Numbered from the whole stretch's first letter, positions 241-58,903 are shown. The stretch: DNA of 62,404 nt, filler included, from Asterionella formosa (GCA_002256025.1; 8 parts of 8 records of this genome joined end to end with filler, not necessarily neighbours in it); one strand, 5' to 3'. The notes: a model not told the origin generated them from the letters alone. A program made the numbers and translations.

Positions 241-610
241 GTTTGGTACCAGGTAGTACCAGAGTACGGGTACCGGTGACCACACTTCAGCACGGACTAA
301 GTACCTGGTACCCTGGTACCAGGTAGTGCGAATTAGAATTTCCTTCTTCATGTCAAACATTCATATATGTATATATATATTGTCATGATTCTTCTGTTTG
401 CTTTGTTGGTATACCGGTAGTACAACACTAGCTACCTGGTACCTGGTCCAGTACCCTGGTACCAGGTGCATGGATATGGTACCTGGTACCTGGTTACCAG
501 GGTACCAGTACTTTGAATGCCTGATAGGGAATATGGAGTCCCTGGTATGGTACCAGGTACCAGGGTACACACTGGTACGAAGTACCTGTTAATAAGGTAC
601 CTGGTACAAG
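241..610. repeat. GGTACC/TACCWGGTA/TACCGGTA-rich low-complexity cluster (putative stacked transposon excision footprints)
   Basis: Dozens of TACCAGGTA, TACCTGGTA and TACCGGTA words in an irregular, non-periodic arrangement. Similar clusters recur at ~11880-11930, 17185-17250, 17605-17715, 22550-22610, 32700-32730, 33050-33200, 42020-42085, 42335-42390, 45525-45550 and 57825-57940. Confidence 0.8.
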
Positions 611-1821
611 ATTCTGCCTGGTCGATCCCATGTAGACTTGATTACGCTGCGTGGAAGCTAGTATCAGGATACATACTAAACTTTCTGCTTCTACCAGTAC
701 ATTTGAATCAGAGATTGCTCCATGTCTCAAAATAGAACTCTCTACTGATGACTTTAGGAGGTGTAGCGTCGCTTTCTGAGATTTCCGTATGAGATATTCG
801 TTCTGGCATCTTCGGTTTGAACTGCAGGATTCCGTATAGTACTCCCTCACAACTGTAAGAGGTCGTAGGCAAAAGGAGCTAGCACTAGCTAATTTAATCT
901 GACATAGAATTTCTGTAGAAGGTTGTACTACACATGGTTCGGAGACCCTGTTGGTGGGAGGTCTTCTTTTCGTACCGCGTGAAAGCTAGTAAAATGATTT
1001 TGTTGGCAGACCGTGAATCTTGAGTTCGTAGTTGCTTTCACTTTTTCGGTTTTTGGTTGCCAGCTGTGAAAAGGCGCGAGAGCATAATGTGAGTAAGGAA
1101 CGTACGAGGCCTACGCATTTCAACACGCCGATCACCACTTCGACAATGGCTCTTTTTCAACTGAAGAACTTCTTGCAACCAAGTGTTGATCAGACCACAT
1201 GATACAGCTGTGCGAGCTGAGTCGTTTGCTGTTCTTGTTTGGTTTGCACGTGGCTTTTTCCGTTTGAAATCGCGTCTTGCCAACCAATGGCAATTGCGCG
1301 TCGTCAGTTTTCGCGTGGACGCCGGTTTTGTCGGTGCTCTACAACCTGAACTCGATCTTCTTTCTAGCTTGTCGTTCTTGTCTATTCTCTGAGACGATGG
1401 CAGCTTGAATGCGATCTTGAGTTGTCGATGCTCTGGCTTTCGACATTCTGACGCCCTTTTCATGGCACGGGATTTGCGAGGTCGTAAAGTGCCCTTACCC
1501 CTCTTAGCCTACTGGTAGTCATGGCAATCAGAACCTGCTTCATTGAATACACATGTTCTCGTGTTCTCACAGCTGTTGAGACCATGCCGGCTACTTCCTG
1601 CCTGCACGAGTCGCGTGTGGCTTCAACTGAGTGGTCGGATCAGTCTCTGCAATACCACAATAACCCTTTCAAAACCAGCTTTCTTTTCTCCGATTCGTGT
1701 TTCAGGACAATCATTCTTAAGCTCAAGGAGCAAACTCTAACTCAGCTGACCTCTGCTCTTCTCTGCCTTTAGCCTGCATCTCTCCCACTCCTCGTCATCC
1801 TACCACTCAATTATTTTCAAA

Positions 1822-3290
1822 ATGAAATTAGCTACGCTTACACTTTGTGCTGTCGTCTCCCTGCCTTCTTTGGCCGAGGCTCTCCTCACCAATCCCATGA
1901 AGACTTCTACCAAATTCAACGGGTAGGTTCCCATTCTGCTTCTCGGCACTTGGACAGCAATCACATTTCCACTGCTCACTTCCGCCGTTTCATCACCACA
2001 GCCTGCAAGACCGCGCTTATGTCACCCGAGATATCAAGACTCCTGATCCCATCCCTAAGGAAGGCCAAGATGAAGCCCTCAGGTTGATGCAGACCGGACG
2101 TCTCTACCGTTACAACATTGCTTACGGGGAAGAATCTGTCGTATCCATGTGCGAGCTTGAAGTCACTGAATACACTGGGCACAAGTACTGCGTTGCGTTG
2201 AACTCTTGTGGATCCGCACTTATGCTTTTATTGAAGACCAGTGGCCTCCCACAAGGAGGAAAGGTGCTTTCTAATGCATTTACCTTTGGAGCTGTCCCAT
2301 CTGCTATTGAGCATGCCGGAGGAAAGGTCAGTTGCGGTATTTCATTTTTGTTGTCTGTCTCAATTAATCCACTAACTCGAATCTCGTTCACAGGCTGTTT
2401 ACGTTGAATCAGACTACAACCACGTCATGGACGTTGCTGATTTGAAGAAGAAGCTAGCTGTCAACCCTGACTGCAAGCACGTTATGATTTCGCACATGCG
2501 TGGAAAGGTAGCCGATATGGACGCCATCAAGGCAGCGTGTGATAACGCTGGTGCCATTCTCCTTGAGGACTGTGCTCACTCACTTGGAGTGCAGTGGAGA
2601 GGGAAACACACTGGTCATGTTGGAATCGCCAGTGCCATCAGTAGTCAATCTTATAAGATGATCAACTCTGGAGAGGGTGGTTTCCTGCTCACTGACGATC
2701 CTCTGATCGCTGCCAAGGCTGCAGTGTACGCAGGAGCATATGAGGGCCTCGCCGGTAAGCACATTACAGTCCCTGGACCTGAGGTCTTTGGTGACCTGCC
2801 AAATCAGCTACCGAATTACTCTTTACGAATGAGCAATCTCGCTGCTGCTGTTATCCGTCCTCAGCTTAAGACTCTCGAACCCAGAATCGAAAAGTACAAC
2901 AATCGGTATTGGAAGCTGGTAGAGAATTTGTCGGCTCGAGTTGGTGACCTGATGACTATCCCAGTCGACACACCAGGGATGAATGTTCCTGTCCACGATT
3001 CATTCCAATTCAACCTTGACAAGCGGTTCACACCTGAGATGGTTCAAATATTTGTCGCTGAATGTCATGCCCACGGACTCCCAGTTGAGCTCTTTGGAGG
3101 CAAATCCAATGCAAGAAATTTCGTCAACTGGGGATTTGCCCCTGCTGAAGATCCTCTCCCAATGACCACTGATATGTTGTCACGCGCATGTGATGTGCGA
3201 ATGCCACTGATGTGGGATGATGAAGACTTTGATGATATGGCCGATGTCATTGTCGAATCTCTCGAGGTTGCTCTTACACAATCAAAATAA
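1822..3290 (+). CDS. DegT/DnrJ/EryC1/StrS-family PLP-dependent aminotransferase, probably plastid-targeted; 3 exons (1822-1922, 2002-2326, 2394-3290)
   Basis: GT-AG introns 1923-2001 and 2327-2393 join the frames into one ORF. Motifs VALNSCGSAL, AFTFGAV, LLEDCAHSLG and SSQSYKMINSGEGGFLLTDD (PLP lysine). N-terminus MKLATLTLCAVVSLPSLAEA/LLTN resembles a signal peptide followed by a transit peptide. Confidence 0.9.
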
Positions 3291-3578: not shown

Positions 3579-6500
3579 TGCTGAAGGCAATACACGCCCG
3601 AGGTCTCTTGCCTGCGAGTATACAATTGTTCGAGGCTGGGATGGCACTCGTAGGGTGACCTTCTCGCAGCGCCGGCGTACACATGTAAACGAGAAGGCAA
3701 GTAGCCGCCGAGAAGGGTATTGTTGAGGCAATTCCCGCTCTAGCTATCGTGGCGTCATTCGCTTACCTACTGCCCACAAATAAAGCATAAATGTCAATTT
3801 TAGCCTACTATTGCCCATCATATAAAATATATTTGGTATATTTCCTATCTTCACCTCGAAAATTGCCAAAGGTCTAATATTGCCCATCATTAAAATATAT
3901 TTTGGGTATTTCATATGTTAGCATTTTGGCAAGACAAAAAATTGCCCCTCGGTTTTCTAGCCCTGGGATTGCTGAAATCGGCAAGGCGTCTACTTAAGGA
4001 AACCATTTTATATACCATACAGGTTTGATTATAATATATCTAGTATTCACCAATCTGTTGTTATGTACATCGATTTTGTTTGATTCCTAAAATGTGAGAG
4101 CGGAAATACAGCTTTTGACACAGTAAATCATTTACCATCATGCCTCATTTGAAGCAAAATGTGTTCCTTGATGACTCCAGTAGCGACTTGTCTTCAAACG
4201 ATGTGGTTTGTTGCTGGATGACTTGTCTTCTTGTGGAATTCATGTTGTGACATCATACCTACTTAGTCAAAGTGGTGCCAAAATCACTGTTCCCAATTCA
4301 ATTGATCTCAAAAAGTCTCATAATTCATCATCTGATCTGTTGGATACTGACAAATCAGATGATTGCCCATTGATAATATCGTTGATTGGACTGTTGGGGA
4401 ACAAAATTTATGGGTTGCGCTGGTAAGAAGTCAATTTCGCGCCATCGTTGTCACATTTTTGGTGCTATTTTCAGATGTTATGTTCTGTTATTATTCAAAA
4501 ATTTATTTTTTAGTATGTTTTCTATGTGAAGATCAGATGTGATGTCTCGGAAGCAAATTTGAGAGTGCTTTTTATGATGCGCTAAAATACATAGTTGCTC
4601 TGTTTTAATTCAATCTTATTACAATTCTAACATACTGATTATTCTACAATGCATGACAGCGGGAACTAGAAGCCGTCATTTCTCTCAAAGAGCAGTGACA
4701 AATACTGCTAAGCGCAAAGTGCAAGATGATAACCGGCGTGCTGCATTGGCAATGTGTGCACTACTAGAAAGGAAAAAGAAGCTTGGCTGGGTATGTTGTT
4801 GATTGGTGTGTGCTTCCGCCCATCATGCTGGCTGACCGAATTGTCGATTTCATCCTAACATAATATTCAATTCATTACATCATTCTTCAGTTTATTGGAA
4901 CGGAATGAGGTTGTTGCAAATGCTGCAAGTATTCCCGAAGCAGCCCTTGATTGGAACGATGAAGAAATAGAAAGGTGCATTTGTTGTTGATTGTTGCATA
5001 ATTGTGCTTCCATTTTGATTCATCTATCATTGATGATGCGATCACTCACAGTTGCATTGTTTCCTTTCTGGTCCTTGTCATCTTCAAAGAACCTTCTAAA
5101 ATGCAATGTTTCTACAGTTGTAAACTCATCCAATGTTGTAGAAACACCCCATTCTAAAGTTGATAGACCCAGCTCTGTTGATTGTCGTGACTCTGATGAT
5201 TGCAACAGTACTACTAGCACATATGATTCCGATTCAAGGTACTTGTTGTTACCTGCTTCCATCATTGCTCCTCATGCTCATCATGCTGATTTCCGGATTC
5301 CAATGTCTCACTCAACTGCTGAAGACTATGACAATGCAATTCGATCCAACAATAATGTTTTCGGATCAACAAAACAAACAAATTCTATAAGAAACCTGTC
5401 GCATAGTAACACAATCAAATACATCAAGTCACTTGCCATCATTGAATCAAGGTTTTTTGAATCCCTTGTAGAGAATTAAACCTTGAGCTCGCTTGCTTCT
5501 TTTGACAATGATCCTGACAATGGCAACCAACCAATCCGTCGATTCTATCTAATATGTTCGTGGGCTAAGACGCAACGCCACCAAAGACATCATCAACACT
5601 GCTGTACTTTGGTTTGCAACCAAATTCTTCAAGAAAAAATCGCCCATCATTTTTGAAAGTGCTTCTGACAAAGCCATTGCAACAGCAATGTACCAACCGA
5701 ACGCCGCCCAAACCAAGCTGAAAGACCTCTTCCGATGCTTCTTCTGCCAAGGCATACCATACTCCCTGTCGAAGGATTTCAATGGTGAGGGTAAAATTGT
5801 TTTGGGTTAGAAATGAAGTAAAAAATAGGAGTTTCAATGGAGACACATGCATCATGAATCATTGTAGTGCTTACACAGGCAACATTGCTTGACTTTCCAT
5901 CACCTCACAATCAAAGACTGGAGGAAGAAGAAAAAATGCTGAAACCAATTTAGACCTGCATTGTTATGTAGCGTAAATGGTCTGGTTGCTGCAACCATGT
6001 GCATCGCTGTAGTAGCCTGACACCAGTAGCAGTATTTTCGCCACAGTCATCATACCTCCGGCCACCAAACAAGCAACCCTGATCATTCCATTCTGAGCAA
6101 GCGTGATACTCGCCACGCTGCACCAGCACTATTGACTCTCTCTAGCTGAGTATTTATGTAGCTTGTGATACAAACTCGTAGAAGAAATGTAGCAAAGTGC
6201 ATTAGAACAAGAAAAGCATTTCTTGGTGGCAATATTGATATCATGGTAAACGACTATACATATCAACAAATACAATCAACAACAATATGTCATCAAAGAG
6301 TAGTCATTAGTTAATACATTGGCTCTCATTTAGATAGACACAATCGAAACAAAACGACAGTGTGGAACGACAAACGACAATGGAAGCGATCAAAACGGAC
6401 CATGGAAGCAATCAAATCGGAAATTCGACAATTTTGTATCTACAATCACATTCAGTGTTTCACTGTTGTACTCACCGATCTCCTTTAACAAGCGTAACAC

Positions 6501-9401: not shown

Positions 9402-9992
9402 TTTTCGTCCAAGATGAAGGAAAATAAGTTCAAAATCAACATTAGCAAGGTACAATATCTTGCTTCCTCTCAAACTTTGAAATATTCACATCAGTACACA
9501 TTTTAGTGATTGAAGCGGCCAACGAAATTTTCAAACTACCGCCGATTATATATGAACATCCGCCAAGATTCCATGAAAATGAGTTCACTCCTGAATATAC
9601 TGTACCAGAAAGGGTACGACGACTGGTTTAGGCCACACACACACATCCGTGCGTATTCTGACAAAGTGGACGTTGTTGACATACACCCATCATTCCAGTA
9701 TCTTTGAGCTGCACTTTCACTGCTTAGAAGACAATTTCATGATATTTCTGGCTCCAAAAAGGTTATGAGCGATTAACCTTCCATGGACATTGGATCAGCC
9801 AAGCCCTATCTCGAGTCTGATTCGATTCACATATTTCCTGTAGAGTACCGGTAGGCCTTAACGGACGATCTGCTCACGAACAATAGTTGCTTAACACGAG
9901 CTTATTATTTGGTTATTTCAAGAATGTCAGTTTACACGAACTCGACCAATCAGGAGGAAAACTTTAATGCACGGTTAAGGCCAACGAAAGCT

Positions 9993-11600: not shown

Positions 11601-11852
11601 NNNNNNNNNNNNNNNNNNNNNNNNNNNNNNNNNNNNNNNNNNNNNNNNNNNNNNNNNNNNNNNNNNNNNNNNNNNNNNNNNNNNNNNNNNNNNNNNNNNN
11701 NNNNNNNNNNNNNNNNNNNNNNNNNNNNNNNNNNNNNNNNNNNNNNNNNNNNNNNNNNNNNNNNNNNNNNNNNNNNNNNNNNNNNNNNNNNNNNNNNNNN
11801 NNNNNNNNNNNNNNNNNNNNNNNNNNNNNNNNNNNNNNNNNNNNNNNNNNNN
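11601..11852. other. Scaffold gap (252 N)
   Basis: Run of N. A second sized gap lies at 15090-15244. Both abut repeat-like termini. Confidence 0.98.
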
Positions 11853-12101
11853 AGTTCGATACTCCGCGGAACACCGATATACGGTACCTGGTATGATAAG
11901 AATATGAACTGGTGACGGTACCTGGTACAATGTTTCAGAAAAGAAAAACAAGCTCGTTTCACAATACATGTTAACAGTAAAATCACACAATCATCCTCAG
12001 CCACATTGTTTACCTCAGTTATTGCTTTGCAATTCTACGAAAGAGTTATTGTCGTTCAAGTTCTTCGCTTCGATCGTTGATGCTGTAAGAATCATTCAAG
12101 C

Positions 12102-17142: not shown

Positions 17143-17259
17143 GGAATATGATGGAAACAACAAGGCATTTATTCAATGATCATACTGTTCGGTACCATAT
17201 ACCGGTAGTATTCCGGTATGTACGTGTACATGTACGCACCTAGGTATATATATTTTTAA

Positions 17260-18328
17260 GGTTGCGGCCCCGGCTTAACCCTAGTTTGGAGAAAATATCG
17301 CTAGGGTTGTAAAAACGGCGGGGAAAAGGGAGTTCCCTACTATTAATTCCCATGATTCGAGTGTCCATTTGAATATTTGAATTAAATAGGAATCGGCGCC
17401 AGATTGATAGAGTTCCATTTCAAACAAACAAAAATGATATTTAAATGTTAACACTATATGGACATCGCTGTATGTAGATATGATTTTGCTCAACGCCAAA
17501 ACACATATATAAATCAGGAGTATGCCAACACGTATGTCTGCTCATGGTTCGTGTTTATACTTTATATTGAATCTAAGCTGCTGAATGTAGGCTTAATAAA
17601 AATCAGTACGGTACCAGGTACCGAAGTAAACCCTGGTACCGGTCTACCGGTGGTACATAATCTCGGTTCATGACAATGGAAGACAGGATGACACTAGTAC
17701 CGGTGTACCGGTACTGATTTTACCTGCTGGTAAACAGTACATCCAATACATGTGGTTCAAGTGTGGCTGGCGTGAATACTTCAGCCAATCTGGAGCAGGT
17801 AAGTAAATTCAATTCAACCAATCAGAATATGTGAAGTGACGCGGCAACGTACCCTGGAGTCTTTTCGGACTGAGAATTATTCAGCGAAACATCAAGACTC
17901 TAAGTATACGAGAACGTTTTGCACATACAAATTCCGATTCCAATATTTTGGCGACTGTTGAAAAAGCCGATCGGGTCGACTTTTTGGAGGAGTACCGGTA
18001 GATACCCGTGTACCCTATAACGTCAGGAGTTAACTTCTGGAGAGAAACTGCAGTTATGTATCGTAAATTTTTAGAAAAGCTTCGTAGCCCCTTTTTTTGA
18101 CTATTTTTGCGATAGTGACGAATCTACGATACATAACTGCAGTTTCTCTCCAGAAATGGGGTCCTTAGCATATCCGAAGATAGAACATACCCCTAAGTCG
18201 ACCCATGACTGTATCTACCGGTAAGCATGTGCAAAGTGGTCGTATTGGTGAAAGCTAATTTTACCTTTAACTACTTGATGTAATTGTACGTACTGTGTGG
18301 GCTAAGGTACATGATAAAATTGTTTTGG
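17260..18328 (+). mobile_element. ~1.1-kb non-autonomous element (family with GGTTGCGGCCCCG inverted termini), copy A
   Basis: Homologous to 58002-58903 (left and middle), 34891-~35185 (left end) and the reverse complement of 25616-26021 (right end). Contains a perfect 31-bp internal inverted repeat at 18035-18065/18125-18155. Confidence 0.85.
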
Positions 18329-26021: not shown

Positions 26022-26086
26022 TCCCGCTCCAGCTATCGTCTTGCCATTCGGGTACTTCTAAGTAATTTTTAGTCTCTAAGTAATTT

Positions 26087-33627: not shown

Positions 33628-33673
33628 TTTGTTTCGAACGAGTCCCTTGCTTTGTTTCGAACGAGTCCCTTGC
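33628..33673. repeat. Perfect 23-bp tandem duplication
   Basis: TTTGTTTCGAACGAGTCCCTTGC x2. Confidence 0.9.
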
Positions 33674-39617: not shown

Positions 39618-40241
39618 GTGATCTAAGATGGTGCAACTTTATAAAAATGTTTCAGAGAAGACATTTTTTTCTCAATGTGGGAAAATGAGCAATCCGTACA
39701 GGAGCATTAACCTACCTCGTTCCAACTGCTATCTTTATTTATTAGAGCGTTCGAAATGTCGATTTTGTCAACTCCATTATTATTTATATATAATAGGCTC
39801 ATCCTTAGTTCTACTGATAATCTACCTTCTAGTTGAGAATTGCCAGATTTCAGGTACTCCGTAGTTCGAATGTCTGCCTTGTGGGCAGCAGCTGTGGAGT
39901 ACCAGGTACTCCCTGGAGTACTAAGTACCATCATCAGGTCTTGCTTTACCTATTACAAAGTAACAGTAAGCACATCGAAGTTGCTTCCCAACGATGCATA
40001 AAAGTCAATGCAAATCTTTATTGACGTGATGTTGGCAGATACTACGGAGGGATCCATACAACTTGTGAAGGTAAACCACAAAAAAACTTAAACGCATGAG
40101 ATCAAGAGAACATTGGTGCTACAGTTTGCATTTTGACACAAGCGCATGGTGCGTTACAATACTCCAAGAAAATCAGTAAATCTCTCAATGTCAAGGTTAC
40201 AAAAGAAAACAGGAGGAATGAAGGCAAGAATATCGCGCAAG

Positions 40242-41765
40242 CTAGACGCCACAACACCACGACTCTTTAGTGTCAACAGTTTCGTCCGTAGACTCATGTC
40301 CCATGTATAGGTTTCGAGCACCCTTGCAGAGGATCCAAAAGTTCGCACAACCACACAACCAGCCAGCTAAAATTCCACAGCTTCCACGGTCTTCATTTAC
40401 GTCAAGTGACACATCCTTGGAAGTAGTTCGATCGCAAACATTCACGCGAGTGTAGTATTCCTTGAAATCCTGAAAGTCCATCCAGAACGACCCGTCGTCA
40501 GCGTCCACAAATTTTACCTGCTTGGCAATAAGAGGGTACTTTTTCCAGAGCTTTGACTTGTCGGACCAAGCTCCTTTCCACTCGAAGGTCCCCCAGGGAT
40601 TGCGGAGCTGCACGAGTCGAAACTTTTCAGCTGCTCCCATTTGGGGGGCGCTCAACTTCACGCCCCCTACGTCAAGTTTGGAAGTATTGGTCACCTCTTT
40701 GGCTTGAATAACGCTATATGCATGGCCTGCGACGAGTCCCTCTTGTTCCAACATTTGTTCACCATTCAATCCGTGACCTTTCTTGTCCTTATCCTTCTTT
40801 TCCTTTTTAACTTTCTTCTTGTCCTTAACTTTCCCCTTTTCTTTTTCGTCGTAGTCCACCTTTCCGATCGAAGCTGACAAAAGTGCCTTTTGCTTGTCAT
40901 ACTTCTTCAAGAGCACCCACAAATTGTCATCGGTGTATACTTCTTTTGTCTTGCGAAAGCCACAAGCACGTTTGTCGTTTTTGTCTTTTATAGCCACCAT
41001 ATCTTCCCGGTACCACGAACCGTCGGGGTTGCGTGACATTTGGAAGACATTGTCGCCCGTCATGCTGTGCCATCCCCAGAGGACGAATCCTCCATCCAGA
41101 GCAGCGTAGCTACCACAAAACTTGGCGTAGACTTTTTCCAATATGATTGCCCATAGTTCACTGCCGTTAGGCTGCATGAACCTTGGTGTTTTTGTGCCTT
41201 TCTTACAAGGAATTCTGTCGTCCACAGTCACGATAACAAATTTTTCTTGAGTCGGATCGTAAATGCGCACACGATATTTGCCGCGAGGATTGTATTCCTT
41301 CGTGACAAACAAGTTTCGAATGGCATCAGGAAACTCAGCCGCACAGGCAATGGCCGCTACTAGCCAGCAGTCCCCAACCGCGCCCTGGCACAGATCCGCA
41401 GGCTCGATGGATCCCTCGAAGAGCTGTGGTGTTTTACCCTTGAACTGCACCAATTCGTGCGCCCGAACCCAGTCGGTGTTTTGGGCCATTTGTTTGGCTG
41501 ATTCCTTCTTCGGGTCGTTGGCACCGTGGTCGCCCAATGCTTTGGCTCCGAAAAAATCATCGTCAACGTGTGGCCATCCAAAGCAGCAGCATAGATAGTG
41601 GTGAATGGGCTGGGCCAGGCGAAAGAACAAGATTTGGACGCACGGCAGACAATATATGAAGATGCTCCTCACAAAGAGACCGACGGTGCATACCAATGGG
41701 CAGCACACGATGTTCCACAACGTGGGCGCCTGCGCATCGTAGATCTGCTTGACGGTGGGAGCCAT
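40242..41765 (-). CDS. Calpain-family cysteine protease (peptidase C2 catalytic domain only)
   Basis: Complete triad motifs CQGAVGDCW, GHAYS and LRNPWG; also ELWAIILEKVYAKFCGSY and DDGSFWM. Cys-rich hydrophobic N-terminus; C-terminal WCCGV. Confidence 0.95.
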   Translation of the reverse strand: MAPTVKQIYDAQAPTLWNIVCCPLVCTVGLFVRSIFIYCLPCVQILFFRLAQPIHHYLCCCFGWPHVDDDFFGAKALGDHGANDPKKESAKQMAQNTDWVRAHELVQFKGKTPQLFEGSIEPADLCQGAVGDCWLVAAIACAAEFPDAIRNLFVTKEYNPRGKYRVRIYDPTQEKFVIVTVDDRIPCKKGTKTPRFMQPNGSELWAIILEKVYAKFCGSYAALDGGFVLWGWHSMTGDNVFQMSRNPDGSWYREDMVAIKDKNDKRACGFRKTKEVYTDDNLWVLLKKYDKQKALLSASIGKVDYDEKEKGKVKDKKKVKKEKKDKDKKGHGLNGEQMLEQEGLVAGHAYSVIQAKEVTNTSKLDVGGVKLSAPQMGAAEKFRLVQLRNPWGTFEWKGAWSDKSKLWKKYPLIAKQVKFVDADDGSFWMDFQDFKEYYTRVNVCDRTTSKDVSLDVNEDRGSCGILAGWLCGCANFWILCKGARNLYMGHESTDETVDTKESWCCGV

Positions 41766-42168
41766 TTTTTACTGACCTTCGTTGCTCGCTCACAGATCAA
41801 TTCGACAGGTGGATACCAGTTTTACTGACAAACGTCAAAATGATGATGAAGGATTTGATGCCAGTACCGTAGTCGCTTTCTTGATTCGGCTTGTTCTGTG
41901 GCAAAACAACTCCTGTCGTTGTAATAGTCTACAGGTATACATAAATTATTTGTGATATCGTCATGGGCATCAAGTCCTGGATCCAAGATCTTGGCTCTAT
42001 TGTTTTTGCTATGTACTCCGAGTACCTAGTACCAGTACCACCACCCCTGAAACGGGAAGCTACTGGTACCAGGTACCGGTACGCGGCAATCATGCATATT
42101 TTTTTACCGGAACAGAGATAATGAATACATACACACATGACATGTATACACCGGTCGTATCAGAAATC

Positions 42169-42263
42169 CCTGCAAGTTGCGGTAATTTTGCTGAAACTAA
42201 AGATTCCACATTTTTTATCCCAGATTAAAATGTTTATTTTAAAAAAAGCCCGCAACTTGCTGG
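42169..42263. mobile_element. ~95-bp MITE with CC(T/A)GCAAGTTGCGG inverted termini
   Basis: CCTGCAAGTTGCGG (42169-42182) versus CCGCAACTTGCTGG|TA (42250-42265): 13/14 match. The left TA is not intact. Confidence 0.6.
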
Positions 42264-42443
42264 TACATGCATAGGTATCTGTATTGCAAACAATGCCCGG
42301 GTATTATATAAAGTAAGTAAAAGTATCGGGATATAGGTACCAGGGTACCCGTTGTATACATACTTAGCTACAGCTACTACCAGGTACCCTGTAGACCATA
42401 GAATCTTCAATCTCGGCATTCAACCGGTTTCTTGTCAGTGCAT

Positions 42444-42600: not shown

Positions 42601-45600
42601 CTGGCTACAATCATGTCATGTGCATAGCCCTCCAGACTATTTTGATAGTTTTCCAGTACTAAAACCGTGTAGGAAATCTATGCATATTATGCACCAGTAT
42701 AGAATCTGTAGTTGATATATCTGCTAAACTCTTGATGCAACATCAAGCAGGAGTTCAAAAGCGAGCGGCAGCAATGGTCAAACTGCTGTGGACTGGTGGT
42801 GCCCGCCATAACAGTACCAGTCACCACTCCAACCAAAGGTAGGGCCAAAACATCGACTGCCGCCATGGCCACTGCTCCTTCCAGTGTTGCTTTGTTTGCA
42901 TTTGGGGAGCTGCATGCTGAGTAAGCTCAAATTTGCCTCGTCTTTTGACTTGCTCACATGGTCTAGTAACCAAATTCTCCCCGTATGTGCAGATACTAAA
43001 AATTTTGTCTGGAGTTCTTTGTTAACATAGACCTGCCCTCACCGTCGAACAGATTCTATATAAGTCGCAAAGACTACGGTGTTAGATCCCGGATTTCCTT
43101 AACCATTACCCATTCATAGATATTTCAAAAGCGAGGATGATGACAACAATAAAAGGGATGTTTTGTTTGTAGCATCATCAAATGCAAAAAGCCTTGAAAA
43201 CCGCTCTAAAAGAAACCCAGGTTTTTGTACAAGAGCTTTCTCATGATAAAGGCGAGCGAAATTGACACGTTTCCCCGTCCACAGAGCAGAGACATTGCTG
43301 TTTCTGTAACAAAAGAATGTCTTCGTTTGTGAATGAAAAATGCGTTAGGCCTAACACCTTGGCTCTATTATCGACTGCCCCAAAATTATCGCAGTATGAT
43401 GATCACACATAAAAGTTATTGATCATACGAAAAAGTTACTGATCAATATATTTTTGCGTGTTTAATCATAAAAATATGTATGTATGATTATATAAATATT
43501 GTTTTTTTAATCAAACAGTTTTTGTTGTTGCATCATTAATTGTACTGTTTGTATTATACATTGAATGTATTTATAGATCAATAAATTCTAAACTCATTGC
43601 TCAAATCATGGAATCATCGTTATTACAGAACTGTTACTGTTTTTTCAAGTAATTTTTCAATTTTACGATTTAAAGATAAAATTGATCTCTTGATTAACAT
43701 TTGGAAAGCTTTGAACAAATGGAATATTTTCGACCTAACGTTTTCATTTCTACAGATCTAAGGAAATCCAACCATTGGTCAAGCATATTATCATGTTTGA
43801 TCAATAATAAACATTAATCGAGTTAAATGGATGCATTGATATTTAATGATATACTCTGTATATTTTATGCTGTCACACATTCATTCCCACTGTACATCCT
43901 TCAACATTTCACTCCAGTTCCAATAATGACATTTGTTGAATCAATTGCGTTGACTTGTATCCTCATTTACTTTGAAAGCAAACTCAAATTCTCGAACCTT
44001 CTTGTATATTTTTCTTGTAGTAGAAGGTTAGAACAAAGTTAGCGAAAGTGTTTCAATCAGTAAACCATCTCCATAAATGCAACTAAAGAATCACACATTT
44101 TATAATCACAAGCGCTCTTCTTTATACGCAAGTGCACCAAGACGACATCGTAACTTCTGCGCAAAAGCACTTTCTTACACGCAAACGTCAAGCGAAAAAA
44201 TCAATAACAAGCAAGCAAGGGCTTTACATCAGCATAATTGAAGAAAAAAATTACAGAACTTCGCGCCCCAATAGTCATATGAACAGCTAATGAGCATATA
44301 ACTTACACCTGCTTTCATGATTGATTGATAGGTGACAGGGTATCAAACCTCATTCTCGCATCTGCAGGTAGGGAAGGGAGTTTTTATGAATTTCGAATTC
44401 CTTTGTAGTACACATCTATCATTAATGAAATATGTTTCATGTCAATTTTCATTTCGCCATCAGTTTGTGTGAAGTAGAGGTACTTTTATCAATTTCGCAA
44501 TCATTTATCAAAATTTCCAATACTTCAAAATCTATTTATCATTTAATACATCTATGAATGTTTATAACCTAATTCAAAGGAACATTCAATATAATACAGG
44601 TATGAATGATAAGATAAAATTTTCAAGACTTGTTGGAAAAACCTCGAACGTCCTTGTTGGTAATCGTATCCCTGGTAAGAAATAGTGCATAAGTGTTATT
44701 GGTACCACCCGCCACCAGCACATAATTTTGAAGTATACTGGTACTTACATGATACAGACAGTACAGTAAGTCACCGCTATTCAACATACTAGAATAAATT
44801 ATCAATATGGACACGATAGGTATTTTATCATGATCAAACACATAACGTATTTAAATCGTTATGTACTCGTATTAAATCATCGAAGTAAGAAACGTAAATG
44901 AATGATCAATTTATAATTCTTCATGACCAAACGCACCCACCAGGTAGCTTTTATTGTTGGTGCGCCAAAAATGAAAGTAGTATAGCGGTGGATATTTTTT
45001 CAAGCTTTAATTTTGAAACATCTATATTTTTATACTCCTACTTCGTTATCATCATGTGGAACAAGGGAACAAAAAGAACTGGTAGACGTGTTGGTGAGAA
45101 CATGTCTCAAAAGAAGTTTCAAAACAGCAATCATGATGACAATTCTCTGAGAAAAGGCTTCCCAGTCGTCATGTCAAAGACAAAATACTGTTGGTTACAG
45201 CAACGTTAACTAGATGGTCTGACTATGCAATTCATGCTTATGAAGACTATGCGAATAATACAACATCTGTAGAGAAGGAACAACCTCATCATCAAGATCC
45301 AGATTCTGACGAAGATGATATTTCATTACTGTTGACTCCTGGTAACAAGAAGATGCCGCCTTTCTATCCACCCCTTCAAGGAAGACATAGGGAGCGATGC
45401 ACTAGTCAACGATAATCCAAAGACAAATATTATAGAGTTACAGCTCGCAACAGGTGATTATCGAAAGTATATCTTACCATTCCGTCTTAGACAATGCTCA
45501 ACGCATGCATGCTGTGCTTACAATATTACCTGGTACCAGGTACCCGGTATGTGAGGATGGGCTGCATAGCTCTATGGAGAGGAGTACCCACCAAAAAACT

Positions 45601-47220: not shown

Positions 47221-47947
47221 TAATAACATCTATGAGTTCATAAAGAAATACATTGCTAACATAGACTGCTCCTTTACATTGTAACTTCAATGGCGATTTG
47301 GTTGTTTGATTGATTTCGACTAGAAATAGAACAGCTTTCCTAGCAAATATGACATACGGTCACATGCAACATGATACATGAAAAATACGCAACAAAGCTA
47401 GTAAATTCTGGTCCCACTATACTGTCTCTAATTTTGTATAGGCAAACTCACCTGTTTACTGTAACAGTCATACATAGTCTCCAATGGATCCAAAGAGACA
47501 GGCCTACCTGTTGCCTTTGAATGACTGTCGTTTTTAGATCCGTAGTAGTGGTCTTAAAAGTTACCGGTATGGTCATTTGAAAGTCACTAGCTGTGTCGTG
47601 TTAAAGATTTTTAGGGGTAGTAAATCAATTTTGACCAATGATTACTACCGGTATATGAACAAGTCTTAAAAAGTACTTTGAGGTTTTATGAACAAGCCTC
47701 GTCAAAAAACTCGGGGAAACTACTGGAGCAAAACAAGTTTTAGCTTTAACAATAAACCCGGAAAAGTGAAAAAAATTGACTACCGGGTACGGGCGTTGTT
47801 GCATTTGCCTCAACCAATGATTGATGCTGGTGGAAGGCAGGTTAGAGACATTTGACTATTTGTATGTTCGCATCGATGCAATTTGACTTCACCGCATTGG
47901 TGTGCTAGTTCGAGGTAGATTTGAAACTGCATGGTCCTAACTGAGAA

Positions 47948-49516
47948 ATGATCACCACCGAGAGTGGCAATACCGGTAGACCGTTTCGAAGCAAGAAAGG
48001 AAGGCAGATATTAGGGTCTTTGAGGTCGTCATTTGACCCCGTGTGCCTGTTTAGTGGCTTGATTCTCTTTTTCATTGTTCCTACTTTCTTGTTTTTCTCT
48101 GTAGAAAACCAAAAAGGGATAGGCCTCTCTCTAGCTAGGATTTCTGTGGGGGCATTACTAAGGAATAAAATCGTGAAGCAAGCGACGAGACAGCGACCTA
48201 GCAATCCGTATGAACTCAAGTACGGAGCAAACCATACGGTTACAATTGATGAAGTTGTTGACGTATTAAGTGCCTTTCTGACTGGTCTACGTGACAAGTG
48301 GTCCCAGAGACAAGAGAATTCATATACATATCACGATGTGTGGTATGATTATCATGCAGTGGCAGTCGAACATCTCATTCCCTTTGATGCGTACTATTTG
48401 GCGCACATGCCAACAAGACGAGACGATGACTCAATTTTTGTATCCATGGCAAGCTATCGAGATGAATATTGCATGGAAACCCTTGAGGGAGCCTACTCAA
48501 ATTCAGAGAATCCCGCTCAACTAAATATTGGAATTGTCCAGCAAAACTGTAATAAAGACTGCATGAGTGGTGTCTTAGAGAATGGAAGGACAGAACCGGT
48601 TCCCGCGGATCCTGATTGTTACACATTATTCTGTGCAACTGCCCTAGGCCAACCTCACTGTGACGAGGGAAGAGTACGAGTACTCAGAGTGGAAGAGTCA
48701 GAATCTATGGGACCATTTGCTGCTCGCTACTTTGCATCCAAGCTGTGGGGAGGAGAATCATGGATGCTGCAGATAGATTCGCATATGACCTTTGCGGAGC
48801 ACTGGGATACCCAATCCATAACAATGCTGAAAAATGCGCCTTCTACGAAACCGATCATTTCACACTATCCACCGCAAGTTGGTTTTGATTTCATAAAAGG
48901 CTCAAGGGAAGCTACAACGCGCGTCTGTGGGCCGACGTTTTCAGGAAGTCAGGTGGAAACACAAATTATTCGATTCGAAGTCGAAGCTGAAGACCGTATT
49001 TTTAAAGTGACTCCACGGTTCGCACCATTTGTGGCAGCTGGATATTTTGTGGCCCACTCAGGAATTCTCCAAGAAGTTCCTTTTGATCCCATGATGCCTT
49101 GGGTCTTTATGGGAGAAGAGATCATCATGTCATCACGCGCATGGACACATGGTTACGATATATTTTCACCGACTCATGCTGTAGTTGCTCACCGTTATGT
49201 TCGCAATCATAAGCCGAAATATTGGGAGACTGTTGGCCGCCGTTTTTGGGATGGAATCGATACTCCCCTCGGTGACTTAGTGGTTAACAGGGTCAAATAC
49301 CAACTAGGTTATCCAGAGAGCGCGCGAGATATGATCCAAACAAAGTCGGTCCTCACAGCAGTGGAAAAATATTCAATGGGAAAAGTGCGACCCCTTAAAG
49401 ATTATATTAAGATTATTGGATTGGATGTGGTAAGGAAAGAAGTCACCATCACTCATTGGTGCGAGACTGGACAGCCTCCTGAGTACGCCAAGAATCTAAC
49501 TTATCTATACAACTAG
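47948..49516 (+). CDS. GT60-family (PF11397 GlcNAc) N-acetylglucosaminyltransferase, type II membrane topology
   Basis: 522 aa with an N-terminal TM segment. Motifs SIFVSMASYRD, IGIVQQN, GPFAARY, LQIDSHMTFAEHWD, EVPFDP and FMGEEI..S.RAWTHGYDIFSP. Confidence 0.9.
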   Translation: MITTESGNTGRPFRSKKGRQILGSLRSSFDPVCLFSGLILFFIVPTFLFFSVENQKGIGLSLARISVGALLRNKIVKQATRQRPSNPYELKYGANHTVTIDEVVDVLSAFLTGLRDKWSQRQENSYTYHDVWYDYHAVAVEHLIPFDAYYLAHMPTRRDDDSIFVSMASYRDEYCMETLEGAYSNSENPAQLNIGIVQQNCNKDCMSGVLENGRTEPVPADPDCYTLFCATALGQPHCDEGRVRVLRVEESESMGPFAARYFASKLWGGESWMLQIDSHMTFAEHWDTQSITMLKNAPSTKPIISHYPPQVGFDFIKGSREATTRVCGPTFSGSQVETQIIRFEVEAEDRIFKVTPRFAPFVAAGYFVAHSGILQEVPFDPMMPWVFMGEEIIMSSRAWTHGYDIFSPTHAVVAHRYVRNHKPKYWETVGRRFWDGIDTPLGDLVVNRVKYQLGYPESARDMIQTKSVLTAVEKYSMGKVRPLKDYIKIIGLDVVRKEVTITHWCETGQPPEYAKNLTYLYN

Positions 49517-52273: not shown

Positions 52274-52398
52274 NNNNNNNNNNNNNNNNNNNNNNNNNNN
52301 NNNNNNNNNNNNNNNNNTTAATTAATTAANNNNNNNNNNNNNNNNNNNNNNNNNNNNNNNNNNNNNNNNNNNNTTTATGTATTTGGTTTCTTGACGAG

Positions 52399-53962
52399 AT
52401 GAACTCACAAAGGACTAAAGCAAGAACATTCTATTTTTACATCATAATGACGTTTCTGATGAGCAGTCGTTGGACAAGAGGATTTTCACCATTGATTGCC
52501 TTTACACGTCAACAACGTCAACAAGAAGGCGTCATGTGCAGGGGATTATTAGGCAGAATCACATCAATGACGGTGCATCGTCGGATGAAGCAAACAAGAA
52601 TGGCTGATAGTACTAAACGTTGTGCAACTACCGGTAATCATCAAAAGGAATCGGAAGCGAATTACAATTATGAAATGTCAGGCGTTGACCATAAGGATGA
52701 TTCTATAGGCAACGAAGGATTGCTGTATTTTGATTCGTTCCACGACGATGATGAGGACGACGACGATGAGGAAAATTCCAATATAACTGATGAAGAATTG
52801 ATAGTAGATGATGATGATGAAGAAGATGAAGAACACGAGGAAGACGAGCTGGATAGCAACGATGAACCACCAAACGCTGTGATCCATGCTCATGTCGCGT
52901 GGTGTACTGCAGTCCAAACCACGTTACAAGCCCTGGAAACCAAATCATCATCCTTGCAACGTGAACTTGACAAGGCCAAGGCTCTTGATCAAACAGTCCT
53001 TCGGGCTCAATTGATCGTTAGTCATTTATATCGATTTCAACAAGAGCCGCATTTAACTACCATTACTATACAAGATTGGGATGGCAATGCGGATGTAGAA
53101 TTAGCCTTGGATCCACTGTACGAGTCAGCTGCTGCCGAAGCCGATGCACTCTTTGCTCAAGCCAGAAAACTTAAACGTGGATCTGCTGTAGTACAAGAAT
53201 TGATCACTCAAACAGATCATGCGATTGAAATTATGAAACAATATCAAGTAGAATTAAAAACCATGACTTCGGAAGAGACGGGGACAATCATTGACGAAGA
53301 ACAGTTTTCGGTGGTACAGCAGAAATTAAAAGATACTTCCAAAAAAACTAACTTTCAACTTCCATCACTACAATCAACTTCCACCAAATCACAACAAAAG
53401 AAACGTCGAGTCACTTCCAACAAGTCAACAACTTCCATTATGGAAACTTCGGTTCGAAAACTCATGTCACCTGGTGGATGTGTTGTGTTGGTAGGACGGA
53501 ATCGACGTGGCAATGACTATATATCGATGCATGTTGCAAGAGGGAATGACATTTGGATGCATGCACGTGGACGTCCAGGTGCCCATGTGGTATTACAATC
53601 CCGACGTGGTTCACCTCCTGTCACACAGGACTGTTTGGACTTTTGTGCCAACGTGGCTGCCTTTTATAGTGATGCCAGAACTGAAACCAAAACAGATGTT
53701 ACCGCCGCAGAACCGAAACATTTATTAAAACCAAGGGGAGCACCACTTGGTGCAGTCAAAGTGAGAGAAGAATTGTACACCTTGACAGGGTGGCCAGACG
53801 ATGTGCCCGACGCGTTGAAGGAAGCAAGAGAAAAGTCGGGAATGACTGATGAGTTTAGAGCCAAGGACAAACAAAAACATAGGCGACGAACTGCGGATGT
53901 AGCCAAACAGACTCAAGCCAAGAAACGATCTGAACAAAAAGCGAAACGAAAGCGGGGAGGAC
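52399..53962 (+). CDS. NFACT-R (DUF814; FbpA/RqcH C-terminal-like) domain protein, probably organelle-targeted; 3' truncated
   Basis: LDP..SAAAEADALFAQARKLKRG coiled-coil, VLVGRNRRGNDYIS, DIWMHARGRPGAHVVL, AAFYS and KPRGAPLGAV. N-terminal ...TRG/FSP presequence. Confidence 0.85.
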
Positions 53963-54189
53963 NNNNNNNNNNNNNNNNNNNNNNNNNNNNNNNNNNNNNN
54001 NNNNNNTTAATTAATTAANNNNNNNNNNNNNNNNNNNNNNNNNNNNNNNNNNNNNNNNNNNNGCATCATAATTTTGCTCCTGGCCACATCACAGCGTTGC
54101 TGTTGTTGTCATTCTACCTGGTCTCCAACAATAGAACAAGTGCCTCTTAGCTACTCACGATCCTAGGAAATCTGATTACTAGAAATACC

Positions 54190-55651: not shown

Positions 55652-55751
55652 NNNNNNNNNNNNNNNNNNNNNNNNNNNNNNNNNNNNNNNNNNNNTTAAT
55701 TAATTAANNNNNNNNNNNNNNNNNNNNNNNNNNNNNNNNNNNNNNNNNNNN

Positions 55752-57340
55752 TCATACCGGTCAACTTCTCGTATTCGCGTAGAAGTTGCATACGAAATTT
55801 CTGCATTTGCACCTCCCAGTATTCACCATACTTGTCCTCTTTCCAAGCATATTCCACTCCTAGGTGTTTCTGTAGAATACCCTGCTCGGTAATATTGAAA
55901 TCTTCCTTGATAACATTTTTCATATACCGGTACTCCACTGCACTTGGAGTCCCACATACAATACCGTCATCCACGTAATTAACAAGTAGACCATCAATTT
56001 GTCCATCCTTGTTCCGGTGCATAAATAACATAGGGTCGATCTTGCTCTTCGTCATACCTGGTTTATTGGTGACACATTTCGCAAACGTCCTGGACCAGCA
56101 TCGTGGAGCTTGTACTATCCCGTACATAGCCTTCACAAGCTTGCAAACATGTGTATCGGAATCGACTCCGATCAAACCTTGAGGGGGCTCAATATAAATG
56201 TCCTCATCGACGTCAGCATTTAGAAATGCTGCTTCCACATCAATAGCCTCCGCTCGCCAACCGTTGTACATCGTCACTGCGAGTACCGTTTTGATTGTCG
56301 CATCGCTTGCAACTGGAGCAAATGTCTCAGTAAAATCGACACCTGGGATTTGCTCATATCCCTTCACGACCAATCTTGCCTTGTAAATGGTCTTCCCGGT
56401 TAACACATCTTCTTTAATTCGAAACACCCATCTCGTTTTTAGTGTTCGCTTCTTAACAGTATCACGTTTGATAACTTTCCACACTCCTCTCGACTGGAAG
56501 TTTTCATATTCTTTGTTGATCGCCTTGATCCACTCTTTCTTGTCTGGTCTTGCCATTGCTTCATCGTAGCTTGTTGGTAATCCTGGATCAGAAGCCAGAC
56601 TTGCGTTGTACACAAAATTCACCTGTGTATTCTTCGTAATTTCCTTCATGTTATCCTCCTCGATAACACCAGGCATCTCAGTATCTCCTGAAATTTTCAC
56701 AATTTTCGTACTCGTAGGATTGAACGATGAGTCCAATCTTCGCATTTCACGTGCCAACTTCGCTTGCTTAGACTGAGCACTTTCCGCACGTTTAGCCTTC
56801 ACAATTGGGGTATTGGTACCTGTAACCTCGTATTTCGTAGTACCATCTATCTTAGTTGATTGTTCAGTTTTCCTCCCCAATTCTTGCTTGTCATCATCTT
56901 CATCTTCATTATCGGACACTTCTCGAGGTTCGAACTCATCATAAAAATCGTCATGCAATTCTTCATTATCTTCTCGTACTGATATCTGCGTATCCAGTTG
57001 GTTGGTGACTGGTTTGAACATTTTCTCTAGTCCATCGTCCACAGCCATCACCGAATACTGATTTCTCACAGCGGATTTTGCGTAGGGTCCGCTAATATCA
57101 ATAAACAGTCTTTCTCCTGGTGTCGTAGCCTTCTCTTGCGTCATCTTGTTGGGTACTGCGCGTGCTTTCGCCTTGGCTGCTGCGCATCCTGCGCACACCT
57201 TTAAATTTCCCACAAGTTTCCACCCAAATAATTTCGATGTCTCACGAAGACATTTTTCCCCCACATGTCCAAGCATTTCATGCGCTTCATTTATTTCCAC
57301 AATCACATCATTATTTTCGTTCGCGTTTCTTTTCTCGATC
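55752..57340 (-). mobile_element. Ty1/Copia LTR retrotransposon pol fragment (pre-integrase HHCC, truncated integrase, RVT_2 reverse transcriptase)
   Basis: HEMLGH..CAGC, PGERLFIDISGP, YKARLVVKGYEQIPGVDFTETFAPV, DVEAAFLN, LVKAMYGIVQAPRCW and YVDD, in integrase-before-RT order. Confidence 0.93.
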
Positions 57341-58001
57341 NNNNNNNNNNNNNNNNNNNNNNNNNNNNNNNNNNNNNNNNNNNNTTAATTAATTAANNNN
57401 NNNNNNNNNNNNNNNNNNNNNNNNNNNNNNNNNNNNNNNNGGGCGCTGTGATCGGATAAATGCCGGACGAGGTTGAAAGGCTTGTATTGTCAAACCAAAC
57501 ACTCCCAACGCGACAATCAACAGCGTTTGGTGCATAGTACAAATCCTGTAGATCCAAATCTTGAACAAAGGAGGTGTTTATCAATGATAAACAATTACAG
57601 GGCAGAGCATGCAGCAAAACGGATGGTGAGTTTTGATATCTTGATGAAGGTTGCTTTCCTTTCGAGAAAAATGAAAACTAATGTGAGCACTACCGAGTAC
57701 ATACCGGTAGTTCCATAAAGAAAATGGAAAGAATGCGAAAGGTATACATATAATCATATCTGTATATCAAGCGCCAAACACAGAAATATTTCATGTTCCA
57801 GCTAGCCGCCTTCAAATGTAGCTGTACCTGGTACCAGGTACACTTATACTGTATACTGTATACCCTTCCAGACGAGAGGTTGAAGGGGACCGGTACCAGG
57901 TAGTGGTACCTGGTAGGGGGTACCTGGAACCAGGGTAAAGTAACATTATCTGGCACCAGCAAGTTGTGATAATTTGAACCCCTAGCTCGAGGAAGGGTTA
58001 A

Positions 58002-58903
58002 GCTTGCGGCCCTGGCTTAACCCTCGTTTGGAGAAATCGTCGCTAGGGTTGTAAAAACGGCATGGAACAGGGATGAATTCATAGGATTTGAGTGTGGATT
58101 TGAATATTTCAATTAAACAGGAATTGGTGCCAGATTGATAGAGTTCTGTTTTAAACAAACAAAAATGAATCTTTAAACATTTATACTATATCCAAGTTGC
58201 TGAATGTTGACATGATTTTGCTCCATGCCAAAACACATACCGGTTTATAAATAAGGAGTACCAGTATGCCAACATATATGCTCATGGTTTGTGTTTATAC
58301 ATATATTGAATTGACATTGCAGCATGTAGGTTTAATACTACTACTTGCAAAAAGGTATATATAAAAATCAGTAGCTGGTAGCACATAATCTTGCTGGTTG
58401 ATGATGATGGACAACAGGATGAAACTGCCTATGCAAGGTACCAGTAGTACTGATTTTACCTACCAGTATACAGTGCATCTAATACATGTGGTTCAAGTTT
58501 GGTTGGCATAATTTTACAAGACCGGAATACTTCAGCCAATCTGGAGCAGGTGAGTAAAATATAAATTAAATTCAACCTATCAGAATATATGTAGTGATGT
58601 GGCAACTTACCCTGGAGTCTTTTCAGACTGAGAATTATGCAGCAAAAATACCTAGGCAAGACTCTAGGTGTACGAGAACGTTTTTGCACGAAAAAAATTC
58701 TGATTCCAATATTTTGGCGACTGTTTTGAAAAAGCTGATCGCTTGGGTCGACTTTTTGGAGAAGGATTGCTCTACATCTACGGGATTTCATGAAGATTAA
58801 AATAGATAGCCATGTACCCTATAACGTCAGGAGTTAGCTTCCGGAGAGAAACTGCAGTTACCCCTTGTAGATTTTTTAAGTTTTCTAGCCCTTTTTTCGA
58901 CTA
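58002..58903 (+). mobile_element. Copy D of the GGTTGCGGCCCCG-terminus family, interrupted by a TA-targeted element
   Basis: Co-linear with 17260-18103. Homology stops at GACTA (58899-58903). Confidence 0.85.

Follow-up and report, generated by a model that had tools for sequence, protein, structure and literature searches.

We analyzed a stretch of DNA of 62,404 nucleotides, filler included, from the diatom Asterionella formosa (GCA_002256025.1; here called the window), in which short palindromic words framed by the dinucleotide TA, such as TA-CCGG-TA, recur throughout and in which two partial copies of a TA-flanked inverted-repeat element are found. The window is a composite of two large pieces (1-26086 and 26187-52273) followed by six of ~1589 base pairs (bp), with artificial linkers at the joints.

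26087-26186, 52274-52373, 53963-54062, 55652-55751, 57341-57440, 59029-59128, and 60717-60816: linkers, each N44-TTAATTAATTAA-N44

A metagenome contig orthologous to the piece at 59129-60716 (97.6% identity) continues into unrelated sequence past both ends of the piece. The long open reading frames (ORFs) of the window encode eukaryotic domains (VPS9, calpain, MRG, DUF760/EF-hand, and Skp1-type GlcNAc transferase), and the best named relatives of the calpain ORF are diatom proteins from Ditylum, Epithemia, Entomoneis, and Nitzschia, at ~60 to 64% identity. Sequencing runs that contain stretches of the window are labeled algae or freshwater metagenomes. A search of the window against Rfam returned no family, and none of the 66 window ORFs has a transposase domain. 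Related DNA was searched in the window together with 10 element-bearing metagenome loci (22.5 kb), amounting to ~84 kb of the lineage.

Excess and TA framing of palindromic words

The initial annotation proposed that TA-framed words pervade this DNA, and both their excess and their framing bear this out. There are 21 matches to TACCGGTA, against a mean of 0.37 and a maximum of 3 in 100 dinucleotide-preserving shuffles of the window. Set against a first-order Markov expectation, the other words are similarly abundant: TACCWGGTA (W, A or T), the commonest unit, occurs 30 times (0.25 expected), GGTACC 58 times (6.2 expected), TACCAGTA/TACTGGTA 16 times (1.19 expected), the complements TACCAGGGTA/TACCCTGGTA 6 times (0.05 expected), and TACCSGGTA (S, C or G) 4 times (0.12 expected).

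TA stands on both sides of 21 of the 106 CCGG sites and 30 of the 124 CCWGG sites in the window (~20 to 24%), as opposed to 0 to 2% for control sites (GGCC, 2 of 93; GCGC, 0 of 83; CGCG, 0 of 60; CATG, 3 of 350; GATC, 0 of 210; GGWCC, 0 of 45). The 77 words in 61.4 kb amount to ~1 per 0.8 kb, or ~1 per 0.6 kb of noncoding DNA. Only 2 of the 77 fall inside the long or Pfam-supported ORFs that cover 29% of the window (binomial P ~1e-9), and both of these sit close to ORF starts. The flanks of the 21 TACCGGTA show no clear target motif in a sequence logo, their sole feature being a scarcity of T at position -1 (3 of 42).

Given the artificial linkers in the window, the words might themselves be products of assembly, adapters, or linkers. 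They lie far from the linkers, avoid coding DNA, and show evolutionary decay between paralogs. Moreover, the stacks that they form are present in contigs from four runs of four studies, with dozens of unlike flanks, and words are also carried by separately assembled metagenome contigs, so they are not an artifact of one assembly. The probability of an artificial origin is close to negligible.

Gain of words at TA in paralogous repeats

One repeat family of the window occurs in four copies. Because the window consists of joined pieces, these copies are real paralogs that may lie on different contigs.

17256-18328, + strand: repeat copy A, paralogous to D (57998-58900), B (25658-25984, inverted), and C (34889-35093)
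17605-17655, copy A: stack after AATCAGTA, where copy D has only TAGCTGGTAGCAC
17698-17713, copy A: TA-CCGG-TG-TA-CCGG-TA, where copy D (58437-58452) has TA-CCAG-TA-G-TA
17725-17732, copy A: TG-CTGG-TA, where copy D (58461-58468) has TA-CCAG-TA
17993-18000, copy A: TACCGGTA at the junction of a ~40 bp deletion relative to copies D (58762-58802) and B
18216-18223, copy A: clean 6-bp CCGGTA insert at TA, the site being empty in copy B
58238-58266, copy D: two 6-bp inserts at TA, CCGGTT and CCAGTA, absent from A and C

Copies A and D are 76% identical. At 18216-18223, copy A reads GTATC-TACCGGTA-AGCATG, and the alignment places GTATC-TA-AGCATA of the reverse-complemented copy B opposite to it. 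Copy D reads GGAG-TACCAGTA-TGCC at 58259-58266 and CACATA-CCGGTT-TATAAA at ~58238; copies A and C (in C, the stretch 35035-35185 was used for polarization) both lack these 6-bp inserts, and by parsimony they are therefore insertions in the lineage of D rather than deletions. The initial annotation had described all three differences as TA-duplicating inserts, and three clean 6-bp cases at TA, two of them polarized by copy C, agree with it. A fourth comparison held only in part. Copy A does have a motif-rich stretch of ~45 bp at 17605-17655, but it cannot be aligned unit by unit with that of copy D, and it also contains nonmotif filler.

The sites at 17698-17713 and 17725-17732 are common to copies A and D and hence older than the duplication of the A/D repeat. 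At the second of these, the presence of CTGG in A and CCAG in D fits a single ancestral CCGG whose CpG decayed on one strand in one copy and on the other strand in the other copy; deamination of methylated CpG in CCGG would yield either form, and judged from sequence the CCAG/CTGG class is best read as decayed CCGG. The private inserts of copy D already carry mutations, and the 21 intact TACCGGTA may be younger.

The clean inserts also bear on the superfamily involved. Units of 6 and 7 bp could be target-site duplications or hairpin-type footprints of some other element, hAT-like or similar, that targets GGTACC/CCWGG and duplicates 6 to 7 bp, and the alternation of the central W between A and T recalls the flipping that bases beside hAT excision sites can undergo (such footprints are described in PMC4561436). 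The clean inserts landed at sites that held only TA and no 6-bp word (GTATC-TA-AGCAT and GGAG-TA-TGCC), which a 6- to 7-bp duplication cannot produce, and no such element was seen in the DNA searched. We therefore consider a hAT-like source highly improbable.

A resident family of TA-flanked elements

A scan of the window for TA-flanked inverted repeats returned a single pair, TA-CCGTATACTTCATTGTCCTGGA... at 58902 and its inverse at 59564. The apparent 663-bp element that they delimit (58902-59564) is illusory, its ends straddling a linker; being located in different pieces, they represent two partial copies.

58900-59028, + strand: element left end, TA-CCGTATACTTCATTGTCCTGGACCCCCC..., cut off by the end of the piece
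59276-59564, + strand: element right-end fragment, ...GGACAATGAAGTATACGG-TA, ~86% identical to the right half of complete copies

Over 127 bp, the left end matches complete ~650-bp copies from metagenome contigs without a difference (100% identity); it is inserted in repeat copy D at the TA of GAC-TA-TTTTT, a site that is empty in copies A (~18108) and B. The right-end fragment has an orthologous copy in metagenome loci L006 and L011 and is also ~86% identical to a transposase-adjacent element end in L008.

Scanning metagenome contigs for exact matches to 18 bases of the element end yielded 28 stretches, among which 10 loci carry a true element and 15, where the match is confined to the 18 bases, are used as controls. 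Each of the 12 distinct element ends, 2 from the window and 10 from the loci, is preceded by TA. The complete copies in L007, L021, and L023 are flanked by TA at either end, and only a handful of ~650 aligned positions distinguish them. Their terminal inverted repeats have 27 of the first 30 bases in common, the first 22 (CCGTATACTTCATTGTCCTGGA) without mismatch, and the terminal bases are CCG...CGG. A second TA-flanked family, TA-CCGTAAAACCTGG..., is present in L020 and L023. The words keep company with the elements: TACCGGTA or TACCWGGTA occurs 14 times in the 22.5 kb of the 10 element-bearing loci, as opposed to twice in 47.9 kb of the 15 others.

An ORF that encodes a DDE_1 domain (PF03184, E = 3e-22) lies ~900 bp away from the element end in L008. 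The full transposase, P0121, has 394 amino acids; its N terminus weakly resembles CENP-B_N (19.1 bits, cutoff 21.2) and HTH_Tnp_1 (18.1 bits, cutoff 24.1). D181, D296, and D332 are invariant across 20 aligned transposase relatives, which identifies a DD35D triad. The link between the window element and this transposase is their common end, L008 45-170 matching window 59566-59438 at 86% over 129 bp. A search for "longer" relatives of the protein found none, and the viral contigs contained no transposase relatives.

The pogo family of the Tc1/mariner superfamily comprises pogo, Tigger, Fot1, Passer, and Lemi1 with its Emigrant miniature inverted-repeat transposable element. The elements described here resemble this family in their TA target, inverted-repeat ends, DDE_1 domain, DD35D triad, and nonautonomous derivative sharing the ends, and DD35D groups are described within pogo (PMC7325037). 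Unlike its known members, they form a diatom family with CCGTA... ends and a predicted transposase known only from a metagenome contig. We infer, short of proof, a pogo-like autonomous element encoding the predicted transposase and a nonautonomous ~650-bp derivative.

Several further observations concern the surroundings of these elements. Beside the element end at 59560-59566, the window has TATACGG-TA-GTTG at the target TA, and L011 (1955-1964) and L006 differ from it by 3 bp (GTA), with TATACGG-TA-G-TA-GTTG; either a minimal scar or simple slippage could account for this. L011 shares with the window a tandem duplication of 97 bp (60214-60381, 97% identical), and the match of L006 to the window ends at 60298, within the region of this duplication, beyond which the contig differs. 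Past their orthologous part, L006 and L011 differ by a replaced segment of several hundred bases with no unit indels, an uninformative comparison. In L021, an ORF for a retroviral-type integrase (568-1689; rve, SH3_retrovirus) lies directly beside the complete ~650-bp element, which is inserted next to or into a long terminal repeat retrotransposon.

Words as probable excision scars

Tc1/mariner transposases cut the nontransferred strand a few bases inside the element, so that the donor flanks retain 3' overhangs, and end joining leaves the first or last 2 to 4 transposon bases between TAs (PMC6943129). Sleeping Beauty, with ends CAG...CTG, leaves TAC(A/T)GTA (PMC6943129), and similar footprints are described for Stowaway/Osmar elements (PMC4561436); Passer, a pogo-type element, leaves footprints of 0 to 4 bp and has the target AAGTACTT (PMC9976928).

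An element with CCG...CGG ends would be expected to leave the words seen here. If its transposase cuts the nontransferred strand within the element, at a distance of two or three bases from each end, TA+CC(G) and (C)GG+TA would remain on the donor flanks as 3' overhangs, and end joining would give TA-CCGG-TA either from 2+2 bases or from 3+3 bases overlapped on CG, both of these being TACCGGTA. Joining of CC to CGG, or of CCG to GG, would give TACCSGGTA. Both predicted products are present in the window. Compared with the ends of the resident family, the CCGG, CCSGG, and CCG inserts fit, and this part of the initial annotation stands; CCWGG, the commonest unit, has no matching end. It might derive from a sister family with CCA/CCT ends, or from CC and GG joined around one untemplated A. 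A scheme with 4-base overhangs (CCAG/CTGG, two mismatches) was rejected, since the TACTAGTA that it predicts occurs 0 times (0.45 expected).

On balance, most of the words are probably scars left by the excision of cut-and-paste transposons that target TA and belong to the Tc1/mariner superfamily, represented here by a pogo-like family. This footprint reading is well supported for the dispersed CCGG, CCAG, and CTGG words, and plausible but unproven for the CCWGG stacks.

Stacks of words and their growth

The words of the window range from isolated TACCGGTA to dense stacks.

241-606: largest cluster region, with chains CCTGG-CCCTGG-CCAGG (302-325), CCAGGG-CCAG (495-510), and CCAGG-CCAGGG (551-567) and a single CCGG (412-419)
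9846-9853: isolated TACCGGTA
11880-11927: TA-CGG-TA-CCTGG-TA, plus a second TACCTGGTA; a possible element end (reverse strand, TA-CCGTATATCGG...) lies next to them and extends into the N run at 11601-11852
17200-17207: isolated TACCGGTA, with GGTACC at 17191
22479-22590: TACCGGTA (22479), chain CCAGG-CCAGG (22554-22569), and further decayed units
25598-25605: isolated TACCGGTA
29280-29287: isolated TACCGGTA in a TA-rich context (TTA-TACCGGTA-TAT)
29910-29917: isolated TACCGGTA
32704-32727: chain CCAGGG-CCTGG-CCCGG
33052-33196: densest stack, with TACCGGTA (33052), CCAGG-CCGG(-CCGG) (33098-33125), CCAGG-CCAGG-CCTGG (33157-33179), and TACCGGTA (33189)
33367-33374: isolated TACCGGTA
34358-34372: chain CTGG-CCAGG
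42023-42081: TACCAGTA (42030) and chain CTGG-CCAGG-CCGG (42061-42081)
42336-42386: TACCAGGGTA and TACCAGGTA
45527-45549: chain CCTGG-CCAGG-CCCGG, where many contigs with unlike flanks end
47562-47978: three isolated TACCGGTA (47562, 47646, and 47971)
52629-52636: isolated TACCGGTA
55925-55932: isolated TACCGGTA
57702-57709: isolated TACCGGTA
57825-57940: chain CCTGG-CCAGG (57825-57840) and further units (57892-57940)

Clustering of the words is real: 16 of the 65 gaps between chains are 60 bp or shorter, against 4.5 expected for random placement at TA. Most chains (53 of 66) consist of a single unit, and the longest chains, located within larger clusters, have three exact units. In all four runs, the stack at 33052-33196 is a place where many contigs with unlike flanks end, with 18 to 42 loose-ended contigs per run at 33156.

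Arrays of this kind could be 6- to 7-bp micro- or minisatellites, (GGTACC)n or (GGTACCW)n, that arose by replication slippage, the TA framing being the phase of the repeat. Tandem Repeats Finder does report period-7 arrays at 433-494 and 33096-33185, the latter within the densest stack, but their matches reach only 69 to 70%, with 11 to 13% indels. Only 2 of 16 pairs of adjacent units are identical (~2.9 expected for independent draws), and this, together with the predominance of single-unit chains, which lie at otherwise unrelated TA sites, makes simple slippage unlikely. In addition, the three single inserts described above arose at naive TAs, and the stacks show no length change in contigs of another study beyond at most 15 gap letters. 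A satellite origin is accordingly very unlikely.

Other repeats of the window, which are of different kinds, are noted here. A perfect 2-copy tandem repeat with a 23-bp unit lies at 33628-33674, and a contig of run X2 lacks one unit; in contrast to the stacks, this is an ordinary slippage polymorphism. A small repeat resembling a hairpin (GCAAGTTGCGG ... CCGCAACTTGC) lies between two stacks, at 42170-42260, and is probably a miniature element in its own right; at 42205, 171 contigs of run X1 break off with a common continuation (agreement 0.85). The repeat copies at 27952-28172, 30040-30260, 26011-26086, and 3677-3750 are 92 to 95% identical in a self-comparison of the window; in each of the four runs, contig numbers are by a wide margin highest at this repeat (bin 29635-30268), which has no TA-CC ends. 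Inverted repeats of ~570 bp (3688-4260 and 7460-6880, ~80% identical) surround ~2.8 kb and may be a large inverted-repeat element or an inverted segmental duplication.

The search for an element that could have left CCWGG covered TA-flanked inverted-repeat pairs starting with CC or C, within 12 kb or 4 kb, and a grouping of 732 TA-CC... sixteen-mers from the window and the 10 loci; a loose lead, CCTGGTNGG..., was also followed. These searches yielded only stack-to-stack matches and the CCG family. The two-unit word TACCWGGTACCWGGTA was also sought in 2.9 million viral contigs, where it occurs in 10 stretches, each time as a lone match, which shows its rarity only; the loci around these matches (2 to 3 kb) hold at most 3 TACCWGGTA and 1 TACCGGTA.

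Evidence weighed against the scar reading

Several results weigh against excision scars as the source of the words, above all for the stacks. Neither the window nor the 22.5 kb of loci yielded an element end that starts with CCA or CCT, which is weak evidence because only ~84 kb of the lineage was searched. Clustering differs sharply between the two classes, 24 of 30 CCWGG words having a neighbor within 40 bp as opposed to 4 of 21 CCGG words (Fisher P = 3.5e-5); CCGG and CCWGG are therefore not products of one homogeneous process, and one family with one repair spectrum does not predict such a difference. An identical 25-base multiunit block (GGTATGGTACCAGGTACCAGGGTAC) occurs at window 545-569 and, reversed, at L006 1290-1330, with unrelated flanks. 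The 3-base scar TACCGTA/TACGGTA, which would resemble that of Sleeping Beauty, is hardly enriched (7 occurrences, 2.8 expected), and two of the seven are real element ends. The transposase gene lies in metagenome contig L008 and not in the window, and the second end of its element lies beyond the contig.

Nor has turnover been caught in the act. No single site appears in all three states, empty, occupied, and scarred, among the paralogs, the contigs of four runs, or the 1.6 kb of orthologous contig, which has no 6- to 7-bp indel; the initial annotation had looked to such sites, and in the one repeat family that displays all three states, each is found at a different TA. Two contigs of run X2 keep at least 12 units over 30320-33183 and 38341-42196 (~6.7 kb) with 15 gap letters, the first having 14 of these over 30320-33183 and the second (record 13) retaining the units of 42023-42081 with 1 gap letter over 38341-42196. 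A contig of run X7 has 9 gap letters over 32146-33044. Since the X2 contigs keep the words with at most 15 gap letters, no turnover is seen on that timescale, and no 6- to 7-bp indel appears among the 12 listed of 46 (four runs). Joints in the contig alignments that skip 80 to 851 bp were considered as empty sites and rejected, their short sides being 18 to 30 bases with no TA or inverted-repeat signature; they are treated as chance or paralogous partial matches.

As first proposed, then, the footprint reading stands on the duplication of TA, the avoidance of coding DNA, and a resident TA-specific CCG...CGG family with a pogo-like transposase relative, and falls short in that CCWGG has no element end, CCGG and CCWGG cluster unlike each other, and no three-state site is seen.

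For the CCWGG stacks, the remaining readings are a sister family that has CCW ends and strongly prefers GG-TA-CC targets, and a repair process (addition of one untemplated A, or templated snap-back synthesis on GGTACC) by which units multiply at a break. The second can be extended to two separate processes, in which dispersed CCGG words are true scars and CCWGG stacks arise by error-prone repair of breaks. Templated, snap-back, or loop-out synthesis primed on the self-complementary microhomology GGTACC (end joining of the polymerase-theta type, or insertion of filler DNA) would add several direct or inverted copies at one or a few breaks at a scar, with inversion turning CCAGG into CCTGG, and the stack would not be a count of transposon visits. 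Such an origin would account for the clustering of CCWGG and not of CCGG, for nonmotif filler and blocks that recur in direct or inverted orientation (e.g., 433-510), for the 25-base block at two unrelated loci, and for neighboring CCAGG and CCTGG that often form perfect palindromes (e.g., 45527 and 57825), and it agrees with the failure to find a CCW-ended element in the DNA searched. A precedent is rice, where filler of 1 to 123 bp is described in 58 of 94 transposon excisions (PMC4423477). The recurrence of the 25-base block hints at block copying rather than growth unit by unit, and such block-like recurrences (at 433-510 and in the 25-base block) favor a repair process for part of stack growth. 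On the other side, the 6 of 30 TACCWGGTA that are isolated, with no neighbor within 40 bp, would still need a first cause, and the boundaries of the units remain TA, which a transposon explains directly. As a full account of the words, we rate this two-process origin rather unlikely.

If the stacks are instead scars throughout, they would grow by repeated hits at the TAs of a scar, and a preference for G-TA-C would favor GG-TA-CC. The AAGTACTT target of Passer indicates that a pogo-type element can prefer G-TA-C, the context that each scar would make. Element flanks abut a scar-like word (TACCGGTA or TACCGTA) in 3 of 11 cases.

L020: TACCGGTA followed by an element
L016: element followed by TACCGTA
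L023: TACCGGTA followed by a second-family element

Because only ~4% of window TAs belong to scar words, these flanks are suggestive of reinsertion at the TA of a scar, although the number is small. Serial visits may be the mode of stack growth. Tentatively, the stacks could be self-seeding scar arrays: each scar would be a better target than the TA that it replaced, each visit would add one randomly resolved unit (CCAGG, CCTGG, or CCGG), and the arrays would accumulate into a readable record of transposon traffic in the germline and represent a new mode of origin for palindromic short-repeat loci.

Comparison with known systems and significance

The phenomenon is of a known kind, namely, Tc1/mariner-type excision scars and reinsertion at the scar. 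As in the footprints described for Sleeping Beauty and Stowaway/Osmar elements (PMC6943129, PMC4561436), a TA duplication frames 2 to 5 bases that mirror the transposon ends, the central base is ambiguous (W), and end joining of 3' overhangs is involved. Unlike in those systems, words here occur at ~1 per 0.8 kb and form chains inside larger clusters, and their commonest unit matches no element end found. Reinsertion of Stowaway at the TA of an earlier footprint is described for intron 4 of the Triticeae beta-amylase gene, where repeated gain and loss were inferred (PMC1925063). The element at the TA of an older scar is common to that case and to the flanks reported here; the beta-amylase case concerns a single locus across species, whereas the pattern here would be genome-wide, with multiunit stacks. 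The filler DNA at rice excision sites (PMC4423477) is likewise short extra sequence at a repaired break, sometimes with a flanking deletion, as at window 17993-18000, but it is described as heterogeneous, whereas the window displays a tiny vocabulary of TA-framed palindromes.

Full-text literature searches for the word strings returned only primers and the like, with no report of them as a genome feature, and concept searches returned only the single-locus and genome-comparison cases cited. The scale, the restricted vocabulary, and the stacking of the words were not found described in these searches.

Cut-and-paste excision scars are textbook material at single loci, but a genome seldom displays them in bulk. 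If the words are scars, between one-fifth and one-quarter of all the CCGG and CCWGG sites would be scars, and excision would have been frequent in this diatom lineage, writing CpG-bearing palindromes into the regions around genes and possibly seeding short-repeat loci. If the stacks were formed by error-prone repair, they would be a natural record of templated end joining at palindromic microhomology. If they are serial scars, the arrays would count past transposon visits and show, from sequence, the outcomes of repair (the choice of unit and the central A or T), and the lineage would probably harbor an active TA-specific element, with a likely transposase for diatom genetics.

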